Origin: Parcubacteria group bacterium
Lineage (GTDB): Bacteria; Patescibacteriota; Minisyncoccia; 2-02-FULL-40-12
Length of the DNA: 64,000 nt
Direction: 5' to 3'
NCBI GenBank assembly: GCA_016186395.1
Contig: JACPLU010000003.1
Span: 11,883-75,882 of the forward strand
The translations under genes and the position numbers were made by a program. The notes under the pieces are model-generated. The model had not been told where the DNA came from, searched no databases, and saw only the letters and a list, made by a program, of their open reading frames with translations. Below are positions 1-62,743 of this stretch, piece after piece. The first letter of the stretch is position 1. The number at the start of each line of letters is the position of its first letter.

Positions 1-71
1 GAAAAGGGCGGAGGCGTAGGGAAACCGAGTGCGAATAGTGCGTTTACCCGCCTACATTTTTAGATTTTAAC

Positions 72-114
72 AAAAAAAACAGCTGACTGAATTTATGTTT
101 CAATACAGCTGTTA
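72..114 (-). terminator. Rho-independent terminator for the insertion-encoded minus-strand ORF
   Basis: aacagctg(79-86)...cagctgtt(107-114) hairpin followed on the minus strand by an 8-T run (A-run 71-78 on plus). Confidence 0.6.
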
Positions 115-148
115 CCACTACCACCGAAATTAAATTCTGACGGATTTC

Positions 149-376
149 TTAGTCAACCAGTAGTTTAAGGACCTCCTCGTCTTCGTTGTAAAAACCGAGG
201 AGTTCACCGAGATGATTAATCACAGTGGACTTTTGAATCCAGTTTGGAACATCCGTTGCTCCAGCGAGCCTCACTTTCGTGTAGACAACGACTTCGCTTT
301 GTGTGCCTTCCAAAAGAGCCTCAACAGAACATTTCCGAATGAATTTATCACCTTTTTTTAAGTCTTTAAATTTCAT
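149..376 (-). CDS. 75-aa protein of unknown function encoded antisense inside the 23S insertion
   Basis: RBS aaggagga sits 5 nt upstream of ATG (374-376, minus strand). The 113-aa ORF in the track would start inside rRNA sequence beyond the inverted repeat, so the internal start is preferred. A hairpin plus T-run lies downstream at 72-114 on the minus strand. Confidence 0.5.
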   Translation of the reverse strand: MKFKDLKKGDKFIRKCSVEALLEGTQSEVVVYTKVRLAGATDVPNWIQKSTVINHLGELLGFYNEDEEVLKLLVD

Positions 377-1000
377 TGTCTCCTCCTTGAAGTAAAGAAC
401 GCGTTTGTTGAAATAGCAGTATATACTATGGTAGCATATACTTTTGTTTTTGTCAATTGAATCTAAAAATGTAGGCGGGATTTGTCTCATACTTAAGACC
501 CGAAGCCGGGTGAGCTACCCATGGCCAGGATGAAGTTCCGCGAAAGCGGAATGGAGGTCCGAACCCACGCATGGCGCAATATGCGGGGATGAGCTGTGGG
601 TCGGAGTGAAAAGCTTATCGAACCCGGTAATAGCTGGTTCTCTCCGAAATGCCTTTAGGGGCAGCGTCGGATTATGTTAAGTTGGGGGTAGAGCACTGAT
701 TGGATTTCCGTGCCCTTATGGGTAGGTTTTCCAGCCAAACTCCGAATACCAATTTAATTACTCCGGCAGTGAGACTACGGGGGCGAAGCTCCGTGGTCGC
801 GACGGGAACAGCCGTGATCTCAAGTTAAGGTCCCTAAATTAAGGTTAAGTGTGAAAGGTAGTGAAGACGCTCAAACAACCAGGAGGTTTGCTTAGAAGCA
901 GCCATCCTTTAAAGAGTGCGTAACAGCTCACTGGTCGAGCTTTTTTGCGCCTAAGATGTAACGGGGCTAAAACCTTATACCGAAACTGAGGGTTATCTGT

Positions 1001-1108
1001 GGCTCATCGATGCGTCTAAGGTCAAATGACTAAGGACTAAAGCTGAAAGGTTTAATTTTTGGCTTTAGACTTTAGACTCTAGACTTTAGTCGTGACGATG
1101 AGTCACGG
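1001..1108. repeat. 108-bp hairpin element, copy 1, inserted at the 23S helix-45 IVS hotspot
   Basis: Differs from 2087-2194 by a single nucleotide. Imperfect hairpin: gactaaggactaaagc ... gctttagactttagactctagactttagtc. Flanked by ggctcatcgatg / cgatgagtcacgg. Confidence 0.8.
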
Positions 1109-1666
1109 GTAGCGGTAGGAGAGCGCTTCATGTGCAGTGAAGCCTACGACGTGAGTCGGGGTGGAGCGCATGGAGGTGAGAATGTTGGCATGAGTAACCA
1201 CAATCCGCCTGAAAACGGCGGACGCCGAAAGCCTAAGGATTCCTCCGCGATGGCAATCATCGGAGGGTTAGGCGGCCCTAAGCATAAGTCAGGTTTTGGC
1301 CTGGCGAATGCGATGGACAGCCGGTTAATATTCCGGCCCTTCCTTATATTTTTAAGGAGCCCGGAGCTTAGTAGACTTGGCATATTATTGGATTTATGTT
1401 TGTGATATAAGAATGCGTCTTTGGAAAATCCGGGATGCTGTCTTTAATGACGAATTTAAATATTATGAAAACCCTGGTAACAGGGAATCAAGTTGAGCAA
1501 GCTTCCTAGAAAAACTTCTAAAATTATGTATAAGGAGTCCGTACCGCAATCCGACACAGGTAGGCAGCCAGGGAAACTGGTAAGGCGAACGGGTGAATGG
1601 TGGCTAAGGAACTCGGCAAAACAGCGGGCGTAAGTTCGCAATATGCCCTGCCAGCCGTAGATTTTA

Positions 1667-1953
1667 GTTTTTAATTTAGTTATAAAGTATCCATGTACTG
1701 TATTTATCTAATTCAGCATTCTGTAACAAAACAAATTTATATTGGTCTAACCAATGATTTGAAACGTCGGTTGTATGAACATAATGCTTCACAACAGAAA
1801 GCGACCAAAAGAAAAATTGGAGAATGGGTTTTAGTTTATGCAGAGGCATACAGAAATAAGACGGACGCTCAAATTAGAGAAAGAAAGTTGAAGCAACACG
1901 GAAGTAATAAACGTTGGTTAAAGGACAGAATTAAGTACAGTTTATTTGAAGAT
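1667..1953. other. Second helix-tip insertion in 23S (E. coli helix-63 region), bounded by a 16-bp perfect inverted repeat
   Basis: ccagccgtagatttta (1651-1666) pairs with taaaatctacggctgg (1954-1969). Conserved 23S sequence resumes at ggggactgtttatcaaaaacacag. Confidence 0.7.
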
Positions 1954-1956
1954 TAA
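1693..1956 (+). CDS. GIY-YIG domain protein (87 aa) encoded inside the 23S insertion
   Basis: The YIGLTNDLKRRLYEHN motif is a GIY-YIG core. The ORF is in the same sense as the rRNA. Confidence 0.7.
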   Translation: MYCIYLIQHSVTKQIYIGLTNDLKRRLYEHNASQQKATKRKIGEWVLVYAEAYRNKTDAQIRERKLKQHGSNKRWLKDRIKYSLFED

Positions 1957-2086
1957 AATCTACGGCTGGCCGCAGCGAATGACCTCTGGGGACTGTTTAT
2001 CAAAAACACAGCTCTCTGCTAACTCGAAAGAGGATGTATAGGGGGCGACGCTTGTCCAATGCTGGAACGTTAACGGTGATGGTCGT

Positions 2087-2194
2087 GGCTCATCGATGCG
2101 TCTAAGGTAAAATGACTAAGGACTAAAGCTGAAAGGTTTAATTTTTGGCTTTAGACTTTAGACTCTAGACTTTAGTCGTGACGATGAGTCACGG
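2087..2194. repeat. 108-bp hairpin element, copy 2, inserted in the 23S domain IV helix-68 region
   Basis: Nearly identical to 1001-1108. It interrupts the 23S between ggtgatggtcgtg and ctggagcccgaagcgccagtcaatgacggc. Confidence 0.8.
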
Positions 2195-2241
2195 CTGGAG
2201 CCCGAAGCGCCAGTCAATGACGGCAATAACCATAATTGTCC

Positions 2242-2466
2242 AAAGGTGAATCGCATTGCCTTTGTAAAATCCGACTATATCGGTGAACATCTCACTAAGA
2301 CGTGAGACAATACCGAGGCAATCCGTGAAAACGGAGAGTCCGTAGAGACTAAACGTCGGATCCTGAGCAAGCCGAAAGGCTAGTTGAAGGAAAGATATAG
2401 TCCGAACTGCATGGCGACATGCAGAAATGAGCAGAAATGTCTCGTTCCGCCGAGTCTGATTCGGCG
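2242..2466 (+). mobile_element. Small ORF-less group I intron in 23S, near E. coli position 1917
   Basis: Inserted after ccataattgtcc (E. coli ACGGUCC). Carries P7-like core strands gagactaaacgtcgg and aagatatagtccgaac, like the Tetrahymena CAGACTAAATGTCGG / AAGATATAGTCGGAC. Ends in G. Confidence 0.6.
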
Positions 2467-2529
2467 AAGTAACAATGTTGAGCGCAATTCCTTTCCGGGT
2501 AAGTTACGGAACTTGCCCCATGAAGAAGT

Positions 2530-3200
2530 GATTCTTTATGCAAAGTCGGCTTATAACGGTGGAGCCTGTTTCATGATAAAATGGAATAGAGAATACCGTG
2601 GGAAGTTGTCTTGACCTAACTCAAGATTAACCCCGTAACGACTGAGGCGAAAGCCACAATGGCGTTTTTTGAAACGTCATTATACGCCGACCCCTTAGGA
2701 TATTATGAGGAATATCGAAGAATATATTTCTGGATATGTTGATGGCGAAGGATGTTTTACTGTAACTTTTAACAAAAGGGATAAAGCAAAAATTGGTTGG
2801 GAATTAAGACCAAGTTTTTCAGTCAGTCAGAATGAAGAAAGACGACAGGTGCTAGATATTATACAGAAATATTTTGGATGTGGTTTTATTCGAAGAGATT
2901 ATTCAGACAGAACAGTAAAATTTGAAATTCGAGACCACATACAACTTAGAGATAGGGTTATTCCTCATTTTGAGAGATTTCCATTGCTCTCAAATAAACA
3001 AAAAGATTTTGAATTGTTTAGAGAAGTATGCAAAATTATTGATCATGGAGGTCATCTTACAAAAAGTGGATTTATTAAGATTGTAAATTTTGCTTATCGA
3101 ATGAATGGATCTGGTAAGCGTAAAAGAACTTCCCAAGAAATAATTCGAAATCTTAAATGATACTTAAGGTGATGATATAGTCTATAGTCTTAATTTAAAG
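2530..3200 (+). mobile_element. Group I intron in 23S domain IV, around E. coli 1931-1951, carrying a LAGLIDADG ORF; boundaries approximate
   Basis: Non-rRNA block between ccccatgaag and ggaaccactggaggactgtctcagcc. Shares taaccccgtaacgactga and ataccgtgggaagt with the intron at 4694-5437, and has P7-like ggtgatgatatagtc. Confidence 0.6.
2705..3160 (+). CDS. LAGLIDADG homing endonuclease (151 aa)
   Basis: YISGYVDGEGCF is a LAGLIDADG motif. Size is typical of a single-motif enzyme, and it sits inside a group I intron of the 23S. Confidence 0.8.
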   Translation: MRNIEEYISGYVDGEGCFTVTFNKRDKAKIGWELRPSFSVSQNEERRQVLDIIQKYFGCGFIRRDYSDRTVKFEIRDHIQLRDRVIPHFERFPLLSNKQKDFELFREVCKIIDHGGHLTKSGFIKIVNFAYRMNGSGKRKRTSQEIIRNLK

Positions 3201-3473
3201 ATTAAGAAGTTCCGGAGCGCATGAAAAGCGGAACCACTGGAGGACTGTCTCAGCCACTGGCCCGGTGAAAATGCAATGTCAGTAAAGATGCTGACTACCC
3301 GCACCAAGACGGAAAGACCCCGGAAGCTTTACTGTCTCTTGGTATTGGTCTATGAGTTTGGATGCGTAGTGTAGTGGGTAGGATTTGAAGTCCACCTTTT
3401 GGGGTGGATGGATCCAACAATGAAACACCCATCTTTCAGATTTATAGCTCTAACTGGTGACACCCTAGAAGGA

Positions 3474-3780
3474 AAATTTATAAGGAGGAGATTCTATAAT
3501 GCTATTTGAAGGTTCTCCTAGCCCAACATTTGAAGAAGAAGAAAAGTTTGGATTTAATCTATCAACAAAAATTTATGTTCATATTAATTCACCTCTTTTA
3601 GGTGAAAATGGTAATAAGATAGAAAAGAAATTTGGTGTATTAATCCATCTTTTAACTGGAAAACACGCGAGATTCAAATTAGCTGATCAATTTCGAGTAT
3701 ATGGAAGTGCGGCTAATGTGATAAAATTTTTGAGTAGTTATTTTCAATAAATTTCCTTTTGACAAGCTAGTCTTGTCTCT
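3474..3780. other. Third helix-tip insertion in 23S (domain V helix-78/79 region) carrying a sense-strand gene cassette
   Basis: Bounded by ccctagaa (3464-3471) and ttctaggg (3781-3788). Conserved sequence resumes at caggacagtgcctggtggacagtttgaatggggcg. Confidence 0.6.
3499..3750 (+). CDS. 83-aa protein of unknown function inside the 23S insertion
   Basis: RBS aaggaggag 9 nt upstream of ATG. Hairpin gacaagctagtcttgtc immediately after the stop. Confidence 0.45.
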   Translation: MLFEGSPSPTFEEEEKFGFNLSTKIYVHINSPLLGENGNKIEKKFGVLIHLLTGKHARFKLADQFRVYGSAANVIKFLSSYFQ

Positions 3781-4148
3781 TTCTAGGGTTTCATCAGGAC
3801 AGTGCCTGGTGGACAGTTTGAATGGGGCGTTTCCCTCCTAAAGAGTAACGGAGGGGTCCATAAGGTACCCTAGTCCCGGATGGAAATCGGGACGATAGTG
3901 TAAAAGCATAAGGGTGCTTGACTGCAAGGCAAACGTGCCGCGCAGGTGCGAAAGCAGGGTTTAGTGAACCGACCGTGGCTGGTAGGAGCGCGGAAGATTA
4001 TCGGATAAAAGCTACTCCGGGGATAACAGGCTAGTACCGCCCGAGCGTCCATAGCGACGGCGGTGTTCGGCACCTCGATGTCGGCTCGGCTTATCCTGGC
4101 GGTGAAGAAGCTGCCAAGGGTTGGGCTGTTCGCCCATTAAAAAGCTAC

Positions 4149-4621
4149 GCGAGCTGGGTTCAGACCGTTAAGAATCTGAATCATAAATCATGAAACTTGA
4201 AACATCTTGTTTCGGTTTGATTTGGTTTTTTAACAGTCTGAATCCGAGGATATTCAAAAGACATCATTTAACGGCGGCACTATATAGGAATATATAGTGT
4301 GAAGTTGACCATATCGGTGAAATCCCATTGGGATAACACCTAGGGAAGTTTGTAAACTTTATTGAAGTTCTTTTTTGGGAGGTGTAGCTCAAGAGTATTG
4401 TATGATGAAAGGCGAAAGTCGGGGACTCATACAGTAGCGAGAGCACTGGACTCTGGATCCAGAGGTTGCAGGTAAAAATCCTATCACCACCCACCAATTT
4501 TTGAGTAATCAATATTTGGCACTTCAATAAAGTTTACAAATCCCGTAGAGACTATACGTCAGCCACCCTAATTGAGCTTAGCTCAGCGGGTGAAGATATA
4601 GTCCAGTGCATACAGCAATGT
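4149..4621 (+). mobile_element. ORF-less group I intron in 23S at the I-CreI/I-CeuI-type site (around E. coli 2593)
   Basis: Exon gggttcagaccgt | intron | cgtgagacaggttggtcc matches E. coli GGGUUUAGAACGU|CGUGAGACAGUUCGGUCC. Core strands agactatacgtc and gaagatatagtcc are present and the intron ends in G. The only ORF in it (4264-4527, minus strand) looks spurious. Confidence 0.7.
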
Positions 4622-4693
4622 ATGAAACATGCGTGAGACAGGTTGGTCCTTATCTGGTGTGGGCGTTAAGACTTGAGGGGAGCTGCTCCTAGT

Positions 4694-5437
4694 AGAATTT
4701 GCTACTTTAAGGAGTAATCCTTAATGACAATCCGACTTATAACGGTGGAACCTTATTGCAACTTGATTTGTTGATAACCAGAATTATCCTAATCCAATAA
4801 TTCTGGTACAATTTACTTGAGGACAAGATAGTAATAAGACAATACCGTGGGAAGTCATTCTAAAAACGATTTAGCATATATTTCCGGTTTTCTTGATGGA
4901 GACGGAAGTTTAATGTTGCAGATCAAAAAGTATAAGTACAATAAGTCAGGAAAAAGATTCATGGTAACTATTTGTTTCTATCAGGATTCAAGACACGACA
5001 AACCTCTTTATTGGATCCGTAAGATATTCGGGATAGGGTATATATCTAAAAGAAATGACGGTATTACTGAATTAAGAATAAATGGATATTCTAGAGTAAG
5101 AATAATTTTAGAAAAACTATTGCCGTTTATTAAGTTTAAGAAGAAGCAAGCAAGAATTCTTTATAAAGCGAGTAAATTACTCGAAAAAGAAAAAAAACTT
5201 AAAAAGACTTCCATGATTCGACTCGTAGATTACATAGTAAGAATCCAAGAGGAAAATTATGTGACAAGAAAAAAGAGATCGAAAGATGATTTATTAAAAT
5301 TTTTAGGATTGACCCCGTAACGACTCATCTTTAAAATAGATGGATGGCTGTTTTTAAACAGTCATAATATGTCGGCTCCCATCTTTGTCGATGGGATGAA
5401 GATATAGTCTACTCTTCTGGTGACAGAAGAAAATGTG
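4694..5437 (+). mobile_element. Group I intron in 23S inserted within the sarcin-ricin loop, carrying a LAGLIDADG ORF
   Basis: Joining exons cctagt + acgagaggattgg recreates CUAGUACGAGAGGA. The 5' exon ends in U and the intron ends in G. Core strands taatatgtcgg and gaagatatagtct are present. Confidence 0.65.
4847..5320 (+). CDS. LAGLIDADG homing endonuclease (157 aa)
   Basis: LAYISGFLDGDGSL is a LAGLIDADG motif; the ORF is intron-encoded. Confidence 0.8.
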   Translation: MGSHSKNDLAYISGFLDGDGSLMLQIKKYKYNKSGKRFMVTICFYQDSRHDKPLYWIRKIFGIGYISKRNDGITELRINGYSRVRIILEKLLPFIKFKKKQARILYKASKLLEKEKKLKKTSMIRLVDYIVRIQEENYVTRKKRSKDDLLKFLGLTP

Positions 5438-5548: not shown

Positions 5549-5703
5549 ATGCCCCAAGATTAGGTCTTTCTCTCCTGGAAGACTACCAGGTTGATAGGAT
5601 TCAGGTGTAAGCGCGGCAACGCGTTCAGCCGAGAATTACTAATAGAGAAACAATTTATTTTACCTTTTTTATAAATTCACCGAATACATAGTTTAAGAAT
5701 TGA

Positions 5704-5834
5704 AAAGACTAATTTGGCGATAATGCCGAGTGTGTCCCACCTCTGGTTTGTTTACAAGCCTTAATCCATTCCGAACAGAGAAGTGAAATCACTCAGGGCC
5801 GATGGTAGTTCGAGCTTAGCTCGAGCCAGAGTAG
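5704..5834 (+). rRNA. rrf: 5S rRNA, with a roughly 17-nt expansion in the helix III / loop B region
   Basis: Carries the 5S blocks gtcccacct, ccattccgaacagagaagtgaaa and ggccgatggtag, and ends in agagtaggtcgtcgccag. It lies about 55 bp after the 23S end. Confidence 0.7.
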
Positions 5835-6014
5835 GTCGTCGCCAGATTAGTCTTTTTAATTTGCTCTGTCACCAGGTCCAGCATAGCCACGCACCTTTTG
5901 TAAAACAAAAGGTGCGAGAGTACAAAAAATTAGTGCTGGGCTCCCTGTCCTGTCCGGCAGGCGGGGATGCGGGGCTTCTTGCAATAAAACAGATATTCGC
6001 GGTACGATTGAAGC

Positions 6015-6791: not shown

Positions 6792-7919
6792 ATGAAACAT
6801 GAGTCGTGCATCAAAAGGTTTAAAGATGTTTCATGTTTCATGTTTCATGATTTGAGAAAATTAGATTGGTGGCTTTTGACCCCTGTACTCGCTTTATTTT
6901 TAGCGAGTCTTTTAAACTTATACGGCATCGGAGGTTTTGATTCTTTCTTTATAAAACAACTTATTTTTGTATTAGTCGGTCTTGTTCTGTTATTATTTTT
7001 TGTTAGTATTGATTTTAGAATCTTTAGGGAATCAAGTATATTACCATCATTACTTTATGTTGCGTCTCTAATATTTTTATTCGGCACTCTATACTCTTCA
7101 GAAGTTCGCGGTATTAAAGCCTGGTTTTTTATAGGATCTTTTGGGTTTGAACCATCTGAAATTACAAAGTTAGCTTTAATATTATTTCTAGCTAAGTTTT
7201 TTTCGAGTAACGGCGGGCAAAGAACTAACCAACCCTTCTCATTGGGGATATCTTTGATATATACCCTAATTCCTATTGGCTTCATACTTTTACAACCAGA
7301 TTTTGGTTCGGCAGCAGTTTTAGGCGCTATATGGCTAAGTGCGTTAATGAATTTTAAAATCAAAAAGACACATATGCTATTTTCGACAGGTGTTTTGGTG
7401 TTGCTTGGTATTGTGATTTGGATTTTTATGCTCGCGCCGTATCAAAAAGCTAGATTTACTGCTTTTTTAGATCCGTTGGAAGATCCGCGCGGTTCCGGTT
7501 TTCAGAATCTTCAAGCTCAAATTTCAGTTGGTTCCGGAAACTGGTTGGGTTACGGTGTACAAAATGCTACTCAAGTTAAACTTGGTTATTTGTCAGAGCC
7601 AAGAAATGATTTTGCATTTGCGGCCTTTGCCCAACAGTTTGGTTTTTTAGGTACTTCTTTGGTCGTAATTTTGTATGGTTTATTTTTATATAGACTGTCC
7701 TCCATAGGGATATTTACAAAAGACCGATTTGTTCATATATTTGTTTTTGGATTTTTAATTTTTATTTCTACTCATTTAATTATTAATATTGGAATGAATA
7801 TCGGCGTTTTGCCTGTCACAGGAATTCCACTATCCTTTTTTAGTTATGGTGGGAGTCATCTATTAACTTTGATGTCTGGGCTTGGCATTGTTCAAAGTAT
7901 AAAGGTTCATACTTCTTAA
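6792..7919 (+). CDS. SEDS-family peptidoglycan glycosyltransferase (FtsW/RodA)
   Basis: Ten-TM SEDS architecture, with ...DFAFAAFAQQFGFLGTSLV... matching the FtsW/RodA conserved block. An alternative in-frame start at 6840 (MFHDLRKLDWW) lies inside a heptamer repeat array. Confidence 0.85.
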   Translation: MKHESCIKRFKDVSCFMFHDLRKLDWWLLTPVLALFLASLLNLYGIGGFDSFFIKQLIFVLVGLVLLLFFVSIDFRIFRESSILPSLLYVASLIFLFGTLYSSEVRGIKAWFFIGSFGFEPSEITKLALILFLAKFFSSNGGQRTNQPFSLGISLIYTLIPIGFILLQPDFGSAAVLGAIWLSALMNFKIKKTHMLFSTGVLVLLGIVIWIFMLAPYQKARFTAFLDPLEDPRGSGFQNLQAQISVGSGNWLGYGVQNATQVKLGYLSEPRNDFAFAAFAQQFGFLGTSLVVILYGLFLYRLSSIGIFTKDRFVHIFVFGFLIFISTHLIINIGMNIGVLPVTGIPLSFFSYGGSHLLTLMSGLGIVQSIKVHTS

Positions 7920-18568: not shown

Positions 18569-19651
18569 TTATTCGTTAAGCCAGAACCAAAATTGATTTT
18601 TAAGTTTCTGAGACAATTTATATGAATCAGCGTGGCTCAAAACACCGAGATATGATTGCAAGGATTGTTCGAGGGTTTCATTTGTTATAACTCCCGATTT
18701 ATACTCCGCAATTTTTTTATTTAATTTTTTAAATATCCGTTGTCTTGTTTTAGCTCTAAGAATTCGATAATGAGGGAAAACTATATACCCGAGAAAATCT
18801 ATTCCCCGTTGAAATTTATTGATAGAAATCTTTTTTGGATGAATTTCCAGTTGTAGTCTTTGCCTTAGGAAAGAACTTATTTTTGGGATTAATCCTGATA
18901 GGTAATCACGACTGTCAGAAACTATGGTAAAGTCATCGGTATAACGGCAATAATATTTCACTTTTAAATCATGTTTAATAAACTGATCAGATTCGTTCAT
19001 ATAGATGTTTGCGAAAAGCTGTGAGGTTAAATTGCCTATTGGTAGACCCTTTCTGGCGAATAAATTTGAGCAAGAAGACAGAAAACTTCTGATAACCTTT
19101 TCAAGTAGCCAGATGGTATCTGTGTCTCGAATCCGTTTCTTCAGTATAGAAATCAAAATTTTATGATCTACCGCATCAAAAAACTTTTTAACATCACATT
19201 TAAGAATGAAGCAAGGTTTCGTTCCATTGCCGGATACTTTTCTGGTCATCTGTTCAAGGACGCGGATTCCTTTGTGGCTTCCGAATCCAACCCGACAAGA
19301 AAAAGAATTTTGAATGAATGTTTGTTCAAAAATCGGATTGGCTACCGAAAAGATGGCATGATGCAAAATTCTATCCCGAACCGTGGCTTTGTGGATATGC
19401 CTTTGTTTTGGGTCTCGGATGTAGAAACCAGTATATTGTCCGTGTTCATAAGTCTTATTCTGAAGTTCTCGACGAAGTTTAAAAATATTTTCTTCAAGAC
19501 AAAATTCAAATCTTTGAACATCAACTTTATTCCTCTTGTCGCTTTTGAAAGTATCCCACGCTGAAAATAGGTTTTCCAGCGAGATTATTTTATTAAACAA
19601 GTTTTTATAGGTTTTCATAATAAAATTAAATGAACGAATTCGATACCCCAA
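18569..19651 (-). CDS. Diversity-generating retroelement reverse transcriptase
   Basis: RT motifs are present: KCDVKKFFDAVDH (motif A), LPIGNLTSQLFANIYMN, where the [I/L]GxxxSQ form is typical of DGR RTs rather than the group II intron QGxxxSP, and YCRYTDDF (YxDD). The length of about 350 aa fits. The true start is probably MKTYKN at 19618. Confidence 0.85.
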   Translation of the reverse strand: MGYRIRSFNFIMKTYKNLFNKIISLENLFSAWDTFKSDKRNKVDVQRFEFCLEENIFKLRRELQNKTYEHGQYTGFYIRDPKQRHIHKATVRDRILHHAIFSVANPIFEQTFIQNSFSCRVGFGSHKGIRVLEQMTRKVSGNGTKPCFILKCDVKKFFDAVDHKILISILKKRIRDTDTIWLLEKVIRSFLSSCSNLFARKGLPIGNLTSQLFANIYMNESDQFIKHDLKVKYYCRYTDDFTIVSDSRDYLSGLIPKISSFLRQRLQLEIHPKKISINKFQRGIDFLGYIVFPHYRILRAKTRQRIFKKLNKKIAEYKSGVITNETLEQSLQSYLGVLSHADSYKLSQKLKNQFWFWLNE

Positions 19652-23415: not shown

Positions 23416-23913
23416 CTAGAATGGTATATCTTTTAAGTCCACACTTGTTTCTTCTACGTCTTCATCTGAATTTGTTGGCGGTTCGTCCTCATTAACTACT
23501 GGTATTTCTTCTGGTGCAACCGGTCTGGTTTGATTTCTTGCTGTTGGGTTTGAGTTTGCCGTTGTTATTGTTTTTGGTTCACCTTGAAATCTCGGACCTA
23601 ATTGTAGATTTTCAGCTACTATTTCTGTTTGGTATCTTTTAAGACCATCTTTTCCTTCATAAGATCTAGTTTGAATTCTTCCTTCTATCATGACTAGCCT
23701 TCCTTTGGTTAAATATTGATTAGCAAGTTGGGCGAGTCTACCCCATAAAACTACTCGATGGAATTCAACTGCTTCTTGTTTTTCGCCTGCCTGGTTGTTC
23801 CAAACTCTATTTGTGGCAATTCTAATCGTGGCTACTTCTTGGCCATTCATTGTTGTTCTAAATTCCGGGTCAGCAGCTAGATTTCCTAGAACGAAAGCTT
23901 TGTTGAGATTCAT
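23416..23913 (-). CDS. ssb: Single-stranded DNA-binding protein
   Basis: OB fold with N-terminal MNLNKAFVLGNLAADPEFR and an acidic C-terminal tail ending DIPF. Confidence 0.9.
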   Translation of the reverse strand: MNLNKAFVLGNLAADPEFRTTMNGQEVATIRIATNRVWNNQAGEKQEAVEFHRVVLWGRLAQLANQYLTKGRLVMIEGRIQTRSYEGKDGLKRYQTEIVAENLQLGPRFQGEPKTITTANSNPTARNQTRPVAPEEIPVVNEDEPPTNSDEDVEETSVDLKDIPF

Positions 23914-23920
23914 GGTTTCG

Positions 23921-23980
23921 ACTAAAGTCAAAAGACTAGGGACTAAAGTTTTGGTCTTTAGACGCTAGACATTAGACTTA
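23921..23980. repeat. Stop-rich hairpin element (gactaaag family) between ssb and rpsF
   Basis: gactaaagtcaaaagactagggactaaagttttggtctttagacgctagacattagac. Confidence 0.6.
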
Positions 23981-52139: not shown

Positions 52140-52206
52140 ACGTCTAATGTCTTAAGACTAAGGTCTATAATCATAAAGAAGCTTTAGACATTAGCCTTTG
52201 GTCTTT
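52140..52206. repeat. Stop-rich hairpin element (variant of the gactaaag family)
   Basis: cgtctaatgtcttaagactaaggtct...ctttagacattagcctttggtctttagtc. Confidence 0.55.
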
Positions 52207-53574
52207 AGTCAAAGAATGCGAATTACCTTTTACGGTGGAGCAAAGCTTGTTACAGGAGCAAATTATTTGTTGGAAGACAAAGATTTTCTTGCTCTTGTTG
52301 ACTGTGGTTTATTCCAAGGTTCTCGTTTTTGTGAGGACTTAAATTACGAACCATTTCCTTATGAGCCCAAAAATATTAAATATGTTTTTATAACTCATAG
52401 TCATATTGATCATACCGGAAGGTTGCCAAAACTTTATAAAGAAGGTTTTAGGGGTAAAGTTTTTTCTACTAGACCCATCCGGGATATTTTAGAACACGCT
52501 TTGCCTGACAGCCTTAATCATCTTAAAAGAGAAGCAGAGGAACAAAATCGGGAACCTATTTATAGTTTTGAAGATGTTGGTTCTGTTATAAAATTGTTTG
52601 AAACTTTTGATTATGATCAAAAAACTGATTTGGGCAATGGAAAATATTTTATACTGCATGACGCCGGACATATATTGGGTTCTAGTATTATTGAATTTGG
52701 CTGGTCTGGCGGACGGATTTTATTTTCTGGTGATTTAGGTAATCCACCGACACCATTACTTAGGCCGACTGAATACATTGAGGGGGTGGATTACGTTGTA
52801 GTTGAATCTGCCTATGGCAATAGAATTCATGAAAATAGAGACGAGAGAAAGGAGATACTAAAAACAACTATCGAAGAAACTATAAAAAGAGGTGGTGTAT
52901 TAATGATTCCTTCTTTTGCAATGGAACGTACTCAAGAGCTTTTGTTTGAACTAAATGAGATGGTGGAGAATAAAAGAATTCCTTTTATCCCAATTTTTAT
53001 AGACAGTCCATTAGCTATCAAATTAACTGAAGTTTATAAAAAACACGAAGCATATTTTAACAAAGAAGCATCCTATTTGATAGATAGTGGTGATGATATA
53101 TTCAAATTTCCGGGACTCTATTTTACATCTTCGGTTGAAGAATCAAAGTCAATAAATGAGGTAAATTCTCCAAAGATTATTATTGCCGGTTCTGGTATGA
53201 GTCAGGGTGGAAGAATTTTACATCATGAAAGGCGATATTTGTCGGATCCTAACAGTACAATTTTATTTGTTGGCTATCAGGCTAAAGGAAGCTTGGGAAG
53301 AAAAATCTTGGATGGGGAAAAAGAAGTTAAAATATTTGGAGAGAGCATACTAATTAAGTGTAAAATAAAGGCTATTGGCGGCTATTCTGCTCATGCCGAT
53401 CAACCGGGTCTTGTACGTTGGGTTAAAAAGGCTTCTATTGGTGAAAAGCTAAAAAAAGTTTTTATTGTACAAGGAGAAGAAATAGCTATGGAAGCGTTGA
53501 GCGAAAAATTGAAGGATGAAATTAGCGGTCTAGAAACTGTTATACCTAGCATTGGGGACGATTTTGATTTATAG
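52198..53574 (+). CDS. beta-CASP family metallo-beta-lactamase ribonuclease (CPSF/RNase J-like), second copy in window
   Basis: HSHIDHTGRLP MBL motif and beta-CASP region, about 450 aa. Confidence 0.8.
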   Translation: MVFSQRMRITFYGGAKLVTGANYLLEDKDFLALVDCGLFQGSRFCEDLNYEPFPYEPKNIKYVFITHSHIDHTGRLPKLYKEGFRGKVFSTRPIRDILEHALPDSLNHLKREAEEQNREPIYSFEDVGSVIKLFETFDYDQKTDLGNGKYFILHDAGHILGSSIIEFGWSGGRILFSGDLGNPPTPLLRPTEYIEGVDYVVVESAYGNRIHENRDERKEILKTTIEETIKRGGVLMIPSFAMERTQELLFELNEMVENKRIPFIPIFIDSPLAIKLTEVYKKHEAYFNKEASYLIDSGDDIFKFPGLYFTSSVEESKSINEVNSPKIIIAGSGMSQGGRILHHERRYLSDPNSTILFVGYQAKGSLGRKILDGEKEVKIFGESILIKCKIKAIGGYSAHADQPGLVRWVKKASIGEKLKKVFIVQGEEIAMEALSEKLKDEISGLETVIPSIGDDFDL

Positions 53575-53613: not shown

Positions 53614-53700
53614 TCTAGCGTCTAAGGACTAAAGTCTAAAGACTAACGGCTAACGCCAATACCTTTCAGCTTTAGTCCTTAGACATTAAGCTACACATGA
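53614..53700. repeat. Stop-rich hairpin element (CGTCTAAGGACTAAAG family)
   Basis: gcgtctaaggactaaagtctaaagactaacggctaacg...ctttagtccttagacattaagctacacatga. TAA occurs in all three frames. Confidence 0.75.
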
Positions 53701-62455: not shown

Positions 62456-62667
62456 GTGATCAATTTTATAATTCCTGTCAGAAAACCCCGAGCGTCAGCT
62501 CGGGGATGAATGACAGCCCCGAAGCGAGCGCAAGCGAGCGTAGGGAAATTATATAAGTCAGGATTGATTTTGAAAAGCATCAATATCTTTTCAAAATCAA
62601 TCCCGTACTCTCTGGAGTACCACGGGCGTAAGCCCGTAGACTTCTATAAACCCTCGCAAGAAGACTA

Positions 62668-62743
62668 TGGTCTAACGTCTAAGGACTAAAGCCGAAAAGT
62701 ACTGGCGCTAGTTGTTAGTCCTTAGACGTTAAGCTACACATGA
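62668..62743. repeat. Stop-rich hairpin element (CGTCTAAGGACTAAAG family)
   Basis: acgtctaaggactaaagccgaaaagtactggcgctagttgttagtccttagacgttaagctacacatga. Confidence 0.75.

Follow-up and report, generated by a model that had tools for sequence, protein, structure and literature searches.

Can a hairpin of an rRNA gene house a complete gene of its own, read against the rRNA? The question is raised by a long insertion in the 23S rRNA gene of a Parcubacteria group bacterium, in which a small ORF with its own expression signals appeared to lie on the opposite strand. We consider it probable that the element is an RNase III-type IVS in a lineage-specific hairpin that serves an autonomous antisense small-gene cassette as a neutral landing pad. 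The window denotes the whole stretch of DNA that was analysed (64,000 nucleotides), and the features of the element are collected in Table 1.

A clamped stem-loop inside the 23S rRNA gene

The 23S rRNA gene is of bacterial type, lies on the + strand and is already under way at the start of the window (Rfam); the 5S gene occupies 5713-5847. Positions 496-991 align to E. coli rrlB 668-1163 (blastn), window 496 corresponding to E. coli 668. The insertion lies in domain II of 23S, where it occupies a lineage-specific hairpin at a junction close to E. coli nt 651-655, and the flanks rejoin exactly into a continuous 23S around the clamped insertion. Elsewhere in the same window, a palindromic repeat family, D1, occupies two 23S sites and several intergenic gaps, and recA and ruvA are present.

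The whole stem-loop spans 47-479 (433 nt). The first-pass annotation had placed an insertion at 62-464, clamped by a perfect 15-bp inverted repeat; the insertion is indeed present, with its noted limits inside the full stem-loop, and the repeat is indeed perfect, with a length of 20 bp (47-66 with 460-479). It is prolonged by a G·U pair (67/459) and, beyond a bulge, by six further pairs; the repeat search returned 35-nt arms of 83% complementarity, and a duplex of at least 21 bp encloses an interior of ~390 nt. The fold of the stem-loop has a z of -3.5 against shuffles. Homologues of the 5' arm, covarying with their partners, occur at 11 other loci. Across the 12 loci, 96% of the cells of the stem are paired and both sides have changed in 12 of the 21 pairs, a covariation that was reached in 0/500 shuffles and that falls sharply once the partner is slid. 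The clamp duplex is maintained across lineages by compensatory changes. The earlier proposal that the insertion extends an rRNA hairpin is corroborated by relatives, in which precisely this place is taken by a hairpin of 5-7 bp closed by a tetraloop (CCCGCC-UUUG-GCGGG).

These observations bear on the possibility that a chimeric join put a foreign gene fragment into the rRNA gene of the MAG, which we regard as vanishingly improbable. The assembly is a short-read MAG, and repeats such as D1 make an rRNA region difficult to assemble; the flanks nevertheless rejoin precisely with a perfect clamp, and the GC content of the insert (0.378) is close to that of the genome (0.376). The misassembly against which the first-pass annotation had cautioned is excluded by the recurrence of the architecture in independent NCBI, JGI and ENA assemblies, one cassette (that of locus L026, through its ORF) having been found on 18 contigs.

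Table 1. Features of the stem-loop and of its 23S flanks, in window positions
Feature	Position	Strand	Description	Basis
23S exon 5' of hairpin	1..46	+	~E. coli 610-653	alignment to E. coli rrlB
Small conserved hairpin GUGCGAAUAGUGCG	within 1..46	+	Rfam model 683-696 element	alignment of relative L088
5' clamp arm CCCGCCTACATTTTTAGATTT	47..67	+	pairs with 459-479: 20 Watson-Crick pairs and one G·U	
Intrinsic-terminator-like element	72..113	-	interrupted 14-bp hairpin 113..80, then U8 79..72	minus-strand fold
75-codon ORF (MKFKDLKKGDKF...LKLLVD)	149..376	-	codons 376..152, stop TAA 151..149	
Shine-Dalgarno AAGGAGGAG	380..388	-	3 nt upstream of ATG 376..374	sequence
Imperfect palindrome GTATATACTA-TGG-TAGCATATAC	419..441	.	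centred on antisense -10 box	sequence
Sigma-70-type promoter-like site	428..456	-	-35 TTGACA 456..451; 17-nt spacer; TG-extended -10 TACCAT 433..428	
3' clamp arm GAATCTAAAAATGTAGGCGGG	459..479	+		pairing with 47-67; covariation
23S exon 3' of hairpin	480..998	+	E. coli ~655-1163	blastn to rrlB, Rfam

Antisense signals and an orphan ORF

The antisense unit described in the first pass is complete, the TTGACA-like -35 box, the RBS, the 75-aa ORF and the hairpin-plus-T8 terminator all being found on the minus strand. The promoter-like site matches 10/12 consensus positions in a promoter scan, by which 0.7-1.3 such sites per region are expected by chance in this AT-rich DNA. The Shine-Dalgarno sequence is mostly unpaired in the predicted mRNA fold. 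The terminator scan missed the hairpin of the window because its loop exceeds the 8-nt limit of the scan. The palindrome over the -10 box makes a hairpin in the sense-strand fold; judging by its sequence, it is possibly an operator or a hairpin of the IVS RNA.

The protein encoded by the 75-codon ORF, hereafter ORF75, has a pI of 5.8 and is soluble (GRAVY -0.15, maximum 19-aa hydropathy 0.63, no TM segment). Its codon usage scores +0.12 per codon in its own frame and is negative in the five other frames; among true gene chunks this score ranks at the 16th percentile, and it exceeds 795/795 wrong-frame chunks. The profile search that the first-pass annotation had suggested gave no match, and the AlphaFold2 single-sequence model is unfolded-looking and unusable, with a pLDDT of 39.8. 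No match was obtained in Pfam, PHROGs, NCBIfam, PADLOC or the PDB, and the sole credible match among ~15 billion proteins is ORF75 itself, HYW77_01000 of the Parcubacteria MAG. ORF75 is an orphan protein. Apparent matches to two repeat proteins of 3062 and 1703 aa in an exhaustive HMMER search were rejected as repeat-driven noise, being sums of weak repeat matches; in one-to-one comparison their single repeats gave BLASTP E values of at least 0.002 against ORF75, and Pfam assigns RTX, TIG and spike repeats to them.

A conserved architecture with unrelated cargo

Loci of relatives were taken from scans of public contigs. At this site, relatives carry the short CCCGCC-loop-GGCGGG hairpin, a hairpin of 60-120 nt without an ORF, or a long insertion with one, so that the comparison that the first-pass annotation had suggested returned same-site insertions both with and without an ORF. 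The long set comprises six distinct insertions, all sampled via one flank pattern: those of the window and of loci L026, L055, L053, L099 and L003. They measure 387-575 nt and each contains an antisense ORF of 70-94 aa (6/6). The ORF-less versions are 60-120 nt long and not 400 nt, and the extra length therefore goes with the ORF.

The order and orientation of the elements are identical in all six. A TTGAC[A/T] -35 hexamer lies on the antisense strand 0-16 nt from the 3' arm in 6/6; estimated from base composition, such a motif has a probability of ~0.01 per locus of falling on the correct strand within ~20 nt of the arm. An SD-like motif precedes the antisense ORF in every case (6/6), and a clear terminator hairpin with a T-run lies against the 5' arm in five of the six, that of L003 being weak. 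The promoter scan was positive for L026 and L055 (11/12 each), for L053 and for the window, and the terminator scan for L026, L055, L053 and L099, where each hairpin and T-run abuts the 5' arm; the promoters of L003 and L099 and the terminator of L003 fell below the scan thresholds.

Compared with shuffles, the length of the ORF at the six loci has p = 0.05, 0.11, 0.02, 0.02, <0.003 (0/300 shuffles) and 0.003, the value for the window ORF being 0.05. The own frame has the best codon score in 5/6 ORFs; in L055 one reverse frame is marginally higher. With a cross-species codon model, the score is positive in the four ORFs encoding soluble proteins and slightly negative in the two hydrophobic ones, which encode membrane peptides with TM-grade segments (L003, L055). 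All the cargo proteins are orphans, with no Pfam match at E<=1 for ORF75 or the five other ORFs.

The cargo is unrelated although the rRNA flanks are 89-95% identical, as calculated from flanks of 110 and 105 nt, upstream 400-nt identities being confounded by other insertions. In Smith-Waterman comparisons against shuffles, p exceeded 0.09 in 21/21 pairs, and homology was accordingly rejected. An 'SDYD' motif shared by L099 and L026 was considered as a sign of homology and rejected (p = 0.12 by the same test). The first-pass annotation had named a lack of ORF conservation across related insertions as a refutation; taken literally this applies, the ORF sequence being not conserved, and the idea nonetheless stands, because the cassette architecture is conserved in 6/6, each with a different ORF. 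Presence is sporadic among related organisms: L040 is without an ORF and L053, L099 and L003 have cassettes, at 89-93% flank identity, and in L012 flank and stem are near-identical, yet the loop is only ~25 nt. Near-identical variants of a cargo also occur, 1 nt apart in the L053 type and differing by 5 clustered nt in the L099 type.

It could be supposed that the stem-loop is nothing more than an IVS or an expansion hairpin devoid of a working gene, that its ORF and signals arose by chance or are decaying remnants in AT-rich filler, and that any antisense transcript would be non-coding. We hold this to be improbable. In 6/6 insertions the longest ORF runs antisense behind an SD, with a -35 hexamer adjoining the 3' arm, and in 5/6 a terminator lies by the 5' arm; this regularity, the gene-like codon usage of the four soluble ORFs and the gain of length that tracks the ORF speak against it. 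These points have to be weighed against the orphan status of ORF75, which is without homologues, its poor structure prediction, the one or so promoter-like site per region expected by chance, an ORF length in the window that reaches only p = 0.05, and the precedent of the Coxiella IVS ORF, itself decaying and unexpressed (PMC4990558).

Class of the element

The statement that the insertion is not a group I intron holds. Neither Intron_gpI nor Intron_gpII gave a match, whether in 1-700 (E<=0.01) or in 47-479 (E<=1), whereas group I matches occur elsewhere in the same gene (2149-2424, 3086-3206, 4255-4625 and 5316-5430), where RF00028 recognises three other intron-type insertions that serve as positive controls. 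ORF75 likewise has no Pfam, NCBIfam or PHROG match to homing endonuclease families (LAGLIDADG, GIY-YIG, HNH, His-Cys); Pfam readily recognises the LAGLIDADG and GIY-YIG ORFs that this 23S gene also carries. Neither ORF75 nor the other cargo matches the 23S_rRNA_IVP / S23p four-helix-bundle family (PF05635) in Pfam. Three features expected of an IVS are present: the loop of a small hairpin inside 23S is replaced by an extended stem-loop, its long complementary termini are evolutionarily maintained, and it occurs sporadically among relatives.

Terminal inverted repeats of 20-35 nt, presence and absence among relatives, variable cargo and the colonisation of 23S sites and intergenic gaps by the palindromic D1 family are what a small MITE- or IS-like transposable element with a passenger gene might offer, the repeats then forming the clamp by coincidence. 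This explanation is very unlikely, since insertion-free relatives have the stem base, CCCGCC...GGCGGG, as their native rRNA hairpin, no target-site duplication is seen (flanks GCGTTTA| and |ATTTGTC), no transposase is present, the arms and interior have no other copy in the 64-kb window, and site and orientation are constant. Arm hits on viral contigs are at chance level and without a mate arm. A phage origin was rejected on this last ground, the 26 hits approximating chance expectation and all lying within unrelated coding sequence, and on the lack of a PHROG match; a defence system was rejected after PADLOC gave no match.

Comparison with known systems

In classical IVSs a tetraloop is replaced by a long stem that is cut by RNase III (PMC4990558). 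As at the site described here, the 23S IVSs of Salmonella, Yersinia, Campylobacter, Leptospira and Coxiella turn a hairpin loop into a long stem-loop with complementary termini; they too are sporadic among relatives, some with an ORF, and RNase III is the expected processing enzyme. They differ in position, the classical sites being helices 9, 25 and 45 and the present one the hairpin near E. coli 651-655, and in cargo, which belongs to one family in classical IVSs and is hypervariable here. The S23p ORFs of Coxiella and Leptospira are in the sense orientation, whereas the window ORF is antisense, with its own predicted promoter, a strong SD and a terminator. In Coxiella the ribosome site of the IVS ORF is poor, in vitro expression required that a promoter be supplied, and the ORF seems not to be expressed (PMC4990558).

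The closest survey treats insertions of this class in the same organisms, with 348 genes and 968 23S insertions of CPR bacteria; it lists 535 of the insertions as non-intron, an annotated ORF being absent from 469 of these, and suspects RNase III IVSs (Tsurumaki et al, 2024; PMC11270868). It considers Pfam-domain ORFs only, is silent on strand and orientation, and does not describe orphan antisense cassettes with signals (PMC11270868). The arrangement is thus unusual, as the first-pass annotation had maintained, known ORF-bearing IVSs of the S23p type being sense. In the literature, we did not find a description of an antisense promoter-ORF-terminator arrangement in a 23S hairpin.

Phage 'morons' are autonomous promoter-gene-terminator units inserted between conserved genes. 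Like the present cassettes, they combine a sigma-70-type promoter and an intrinsic terminator at a fixed position of a scaffold, are present or absent, and carry unrelated cargo. With its predicted promoter, ORF and terminator on a conserved scaffold, variable among relatives, the window element would qualify as a moron-like cassette; the scaffold of morons is a phage genome, whereas here a cellular chromosome provides it in the form of an rRNA hairpin, with no phage link found.

Genes antisense to rRNA are also known from yeast TAR1 and the endonuclease gene of the Didymium S956-2 group I intron (PMC3026818, PMC3563013, PMC3679873). Both are, like the window ORF, coded opposite an rRNA gene or insertion, and are expressed from their own promoter against rRNA transcription. 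They are eukaryotic and transcribed by Pol II, whereas the window element is bacterial; unlike the window cassette, TAR1 overlaps mature 25S sequence, and the Didymium gene, housed by an intron that splices itself, has a product recognisable as a homing endonuclease, unlike the window ORF.

Proposed mechanism

Under the landing-pad reading, it can be hypothesised that pre-23S folds the long duplex, that RNase III removes the loop and that the large subunit is left unaffected. CPR bacteria keep rnc (PMC12641178); no RNase III gene was found among the 20 window ORFs scanned. On the minus strand, the cassette promoter would drive a monocistronic mRNA of ~350 nt, from which the 75-aa protein would be translated. 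Only the antisense orientation would survive, because the 23S is essential and single-copy and would be cut short or disturbed by a terminator (and promoter) in the sense orientation; to the rRNA polymerase, the terminator element as it stands presents an A-run and then the hairpin, and would not terminate transcription. The interior between the arms may be swapped as a unit between lineages, by homologous recombination via the conserved arms and rRNA flanks. The best reading of the landing-pad cargo, as far as the sequences allow, is that of exchangeable, self-contained 'moron-like' small genes, and the set looks like accessory or selfish small genes. During rRNA synthesis the cassette would be repressed by the strong convergent transcription of the rRNA and by the IVS RNA, to which the mRNA is fully complementary and with which it would pair.

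This last step resembles type I toxin-antitoxin systems, in which the mRNA of a small ORF is fully complementary to an abundant RNA of the opposite strand, and some of the cargo here are short membrane peptides. An rRNA-gated toxin or stress switch of this kind, in which the excised sense IVS RNA would repress the cassette mRNA and the protein would be made only when rRNA synthesis collapses (starvation, phage attack), has a low probability in our estimation. By construction the mRNA is fully complementary to the IVS RNA, transcription of the two units converges, RNase III is retained in CPR bacteria, and two of the six cargo proteins (L003, L055) are small hydrophobic membrane peptides. However, ORF75 and three other proteins are soluble and, at 70-94 aa, longer than and unlike typical type I toxins, ORF75 in particular not being a small hydrophobic peptide; the SD is not sequestered in the predicted mRNA fold, no PADLOC or toxin-family match was found, and the 'antitoxin' would have to be the pre-rRNA. 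A broader version, rather unlikely as well, is that the site is a dedicated, horizontally exchangeable 'cargo bay' in which the sense IVS RNA and head-on rRNA transcription act as a built-in repressor, making it an rRNA-transcription-gated dormancy, addiction or anti-phage switch. The universally conserved rRNA flanks and arms would then serve as homology arms that spread unrelated small genes between CPR species, and the cargo proteins would be produced only upon shutdown of rRNA synthesis.

Implications

The rRNA genes of CPR/Patescibacteria are rich in insertions, of which the explained fraction is confined to introns and their homing endonucleases, and hundreds of the others figure as uncharacterised, 'ORF-less' non-intron insertions (PMC11270868). 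One site of this kind, at least, is systematically occupied by complete, oppositely oriented, predicted expression units whose orphan genes appear to be exchanged rapidly. An IVS that serves as a landing pad would give IVS loops a testable role as safe harbours in streamlined genomes with almost no intergenic space. It would also account for the orientation rule, terminators having to avoid facing the rRNA polymerase, and expression is predicted to be inverse to rRNA synthesis. It can therefore be surmised that a pool of small proteins may lie inside rRNA genes, where annotation pipelines mask or discard it.

Results

On the minus strand of the 47-479 stem-loop in the 23S rRNA gene we found a promoter-like site (TTGACA-17-TGcTACCAT), the SD AAGGAGGAG three nt upstream of the ATG of a 75-codon ORF, and a terminator-like element, an interrupted 14-bp hairpin followed by U8. 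All elements listed by the first-pass annotation are present, some with corrected figures: the inverted repeat described as a perfect 15-bp clamp exists, its perfect part being 20 bp long (47-66 / 460-479) and followed by a G·U and six more pairs. That the insertion is not a group I intron agrees with an Rfam scan of 1-700, which matched LSU and no other family; at the gene's other introns Rfam did give RF00028. The observation is confirmed, and its interpretation is supported. A palindrome at 419-441 (GTATATACTA-TGG-TAGCATATAC, 10-nt arms, one mismatch) has its centre exactly at the antisense -10 box and could be an autoregulation operator or simply a hairpin of the IVS RNA; short palindromes also lie over the -35 regions of L003 and L026, two of the 23S loci found on other public contigs.

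Under a log-odds model of codon usage built from 24 long window genes, the ORF scored +0.12 per codon, against 0.19 ± 0.08 for true 75-codon chunks and -0.17 to -0.52 for its five other frames, a score that none of 795 wrong-frame chunks reached. The insert has the same GC content as the genome. The encoded protein is soluble (pI 5.8), its single-sequence AlphaFold model, with a pLDDT of ~40, is uninformative, and its only database match is itself (HYW77_01000, hypothetical protein, Parcubacteria group bacterium), encoded on a 239-kb contig, which makes the source a CPR/Patescibacteria MAG. The HMM search proposed in the first-pass annotation returned no family from Pfam, PHROGs or NCBIfam; nor was there a match in PADLOC or PDB sequences, a paralogue within the 64-kb window, or a credible relative among 5.8 billion clusters or 1.84 billion representatives. 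The scores of two long repeat proteins were rejected as artefacts of summed repeats.

Genomes were scanned with the 3' flank and metagenomes with the 5' flank plus 'CCCGC', which together recovered ~35 true CPR 23S loci amid many chance matches. The comparison of orthologous genes, also proposed at first pass, showed relatives with a short hairpin, an ORF-less extension or long antisense cassettes. At this site, which follows a small conserved hairpin (683-696 in the Rfam model), bacteria generally have a 4-nt junction. In many Parcubacteria an additional short hairpin is present there, CCCGC(C)-loop-(G)GCGGG, which is missing in some lineages (e.g. L007). ORF-less hairpin extensions of 60-120 nt occur at L040, L058, L059/L071, L037, L030 and L012, the last of which matches 45/46 nt of the window 5' flank and has nearly the same stem, with a loop of only ~25 nt. 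Six distinct long versions were sampled, all via one flank pattern, and in each the longest ORF is antisense to the rRNA: the window (433 nt; 75 aa), L003 (from a Ca. Yanofskybacteria MAG; 73 aa), L099 (81 aa), L026 (= L081; 70 aa), L053 (94 aa) and L055 (87 aa). All six have an SD-like motif upstream of this ORF and TTGAC[A/T] 0-16 nt inside the 3' arm, and five have a GC hairpin and T-run adjoining the 5' arm. With an E. coli-type consensus, promoters were called independently by scan in the window, L026, L055 and L053, those of L003 and L099 being weaker; terminators were called in L026, L055, L053 and L099, with a weaker signal in L003. ORF length against shuffles gave p from 0.11 down to <0.003, and the best coding score fell in the ORF's own frame in five of six, a reverse frame being marginally higher in L055. 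The L026 ORF recurs on 18 contigs, and six ENA assemblies yielded six contigs with the L053-type cassette; the cassettes are real and recur in independent assemblies.

In L003, ~250 extra nt (locus 7312-7565, oriented 436-689) separate the antisense ORF from the 5' arm; this stretch has further short ORFs and promoter-like sites, is without a clear terminator, and may be the remnant of a second cassette. In L117 and L119, two L053-type contexts, protein genes (MS channel, pyrophosphatase, RmuC, MurD) precede the 23S instead of 16S, so that the rRNA genes of this lineage are unlinked; gene callers place a probably spurious 59-aa 'protein' within the 23S 5' domain there.

Neither BLASTP nor Smith-Waterman against shuffles detected any mutual similarity among the six cargo proteins. 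Four are soluble, and those of L003 and L055 have TM-grade hydrophobic segments; the L003 protein weakly resembles the 2-TM PLDc_N domain, under the family cutoff, and that of L053 is likewise an orphan. Since the rRNA flanks share 89-93% identity among L003, L053, L040 and L099, and 95% between L026 and L055, while the cargo is unrelated, the interiors differ by replacement and not by gradual divergence. The arms of the stem are near-identical between loci, e.g. CCCGCTCAAATTTTTGGA; their differences occur on both sides, with 96% of cells paired and double changes in 12/21 pairs, and the pairing score was equalled in 0/500 shuffles and collapsed when the partner was slid.

Features of the 23S rRNA gene and its surroundings (window positions)
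Feature	Position	Strand	E. coli 23S site	Content
Stem-loop with antisense cassette	47-479	within + strand 23S		
110-nt hairpin repeat, two copies in 23S	999-1108; 2085-2194			
Clamp-type non-intron insertion	1650-1970		~1700-1770	25-nt inverted repeat
ORF in 1650-1970	1693-1956	+ (sense)		87 aa, minimal GIY-YIG domain
Group I-type intron 1	2149-3206		near 1917-1952	single-domain LAGLIDADG gene, 151 aa
Clamp-type insertion	3454-3797		~2206-2223	
ORF in 3454-3797	3499-3750	+ (sense)		83 aa, orphan
Group I-type intron 2	4169-4632		near 2593	without ORF
Group I-type intron 3	4695-5437		near 2657	single-domain LAGLIDADG gene, 157 aa
5S rRNA gene (Rfam)	5713-5847			
Inverted repeat flanking 5S	5698-5720 / 5839-5861			23 nt, 91% complementary
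Reverse transcriptase	18569-19651	-		360 aa, RVT_1, E = 5e-23
Weaker or degenerate 110-nt copies, intergenic gaps	53627-53687; 23910-23979; 52141-52210; 62665-62700			

The window begins inside a bacterial 23S rRNA gene on the + strand (window 496 = E. coli 668) whose many interruptions agree with the published picture of CPR rRNA genes, as does a GIY-YIG ORF in a non-intron insertion (PMC11270868). Because of the insertions, the LSU match in Rfam covers 393-4234 of a gene that runs from before position 1 to ~5640, and automatic annotation would mis-bound it. The 83-aa sense ORF has a strong SD, AAGGAGGAG, without its own promoter, and at the same place L003 (oriented 3564-3858) carries a sense ORF of 70 aa, different from it and likewise with an SD; the orientation of an ORF therefore seems to depend on the site. 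The inverted repeat around the 5S gene is presumably a processing stem. Ordinary chromosomal genes follow downstream (among them ftsW, rpoB, rpoC, ftsK, recA, glmS, ychF, ruvA), the reverse transcriptase gene lying between ftsK and recA.

The two 110-nt copies inside the 23S are 99% identical, one lying at helix 45, a classical IVS site (E. coli ~1163-1186), and the other directly 5' of a group I intron. The element forms a near-perfect hairpin (-57.9 kcal/mol, z = -9.9), and its degenerate intergenic copies give it the look of a REP/MITE-like family of palindromic repeats, one that colonises rRNA as well.

Discussion

The anatomy of the insertion, a long duplex replacing a tetraloop and sporadic in relatives, fits a classical IVS. 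RNase III is known to cut IVS-type duplexes (PMC4990558) and rnc is retained in CPR bacteria (PMC12641178); the loop would accordingly be excised from pre-23S by RNase III. We propose that the opposite strand constitutes a transcription unit complete in itself, and, the SD being largely unpaired in the predicted mRNA fold, its transcript should be translated. Selection is the simplest explanation of the strict antisense orientation, since a terminator placed in the sense orientation would truncate the 23S, which is single-copy; read in the rRNA sense, the element would be an A-run followed by a hairpin, and harmless. It can be hypothesised that whole interiors are exchanged via the conserved arms and rRNA flanks, which would account for a conserved frame filled with unrelated cargo; the window contains both recA and ruvA. 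More speculatively, rRNA transcription that converges on the cassette, together with an IVS RNA perfectly complementary to its mRNA, predicts that cassette expression would be inversely coupled to rRNA synthesis, and on this basis the cassette could be read as an 'rRNA-gated switch', which we consider improbable.

In the S23p ORF-bearing IVSs of Coxiella, Leptospira and others the ORFs are sense, in contrast to the antisense ORF described here; the Coxiella ORF has a poor SD, required a supplied promoter in order to be expressed in vitro and is apparently not expressed (PMC4990558). The CPR survey called ORFs in six frames but reported only those with Pfam annotation, gave 469 non-intron 23S insertions as being without annotated ORFs, and never mentioned strand (PMC11270868). 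Protein genes antisense in rDNA are otherwise represented by the eukaryotic TAR1 and the Didymium S956-2 antisense HEG (PMC3026818, PMC3563013, PMC3679873). Our literature searches found no bacterial counterpart of an antisense cassette in an rRNA gene. Functionally, the phage 'moron' is the closest analogue. What had appeared as a single odd insertion is broadened to an architecture that recurs and whose orphan cargo is hypervariable.
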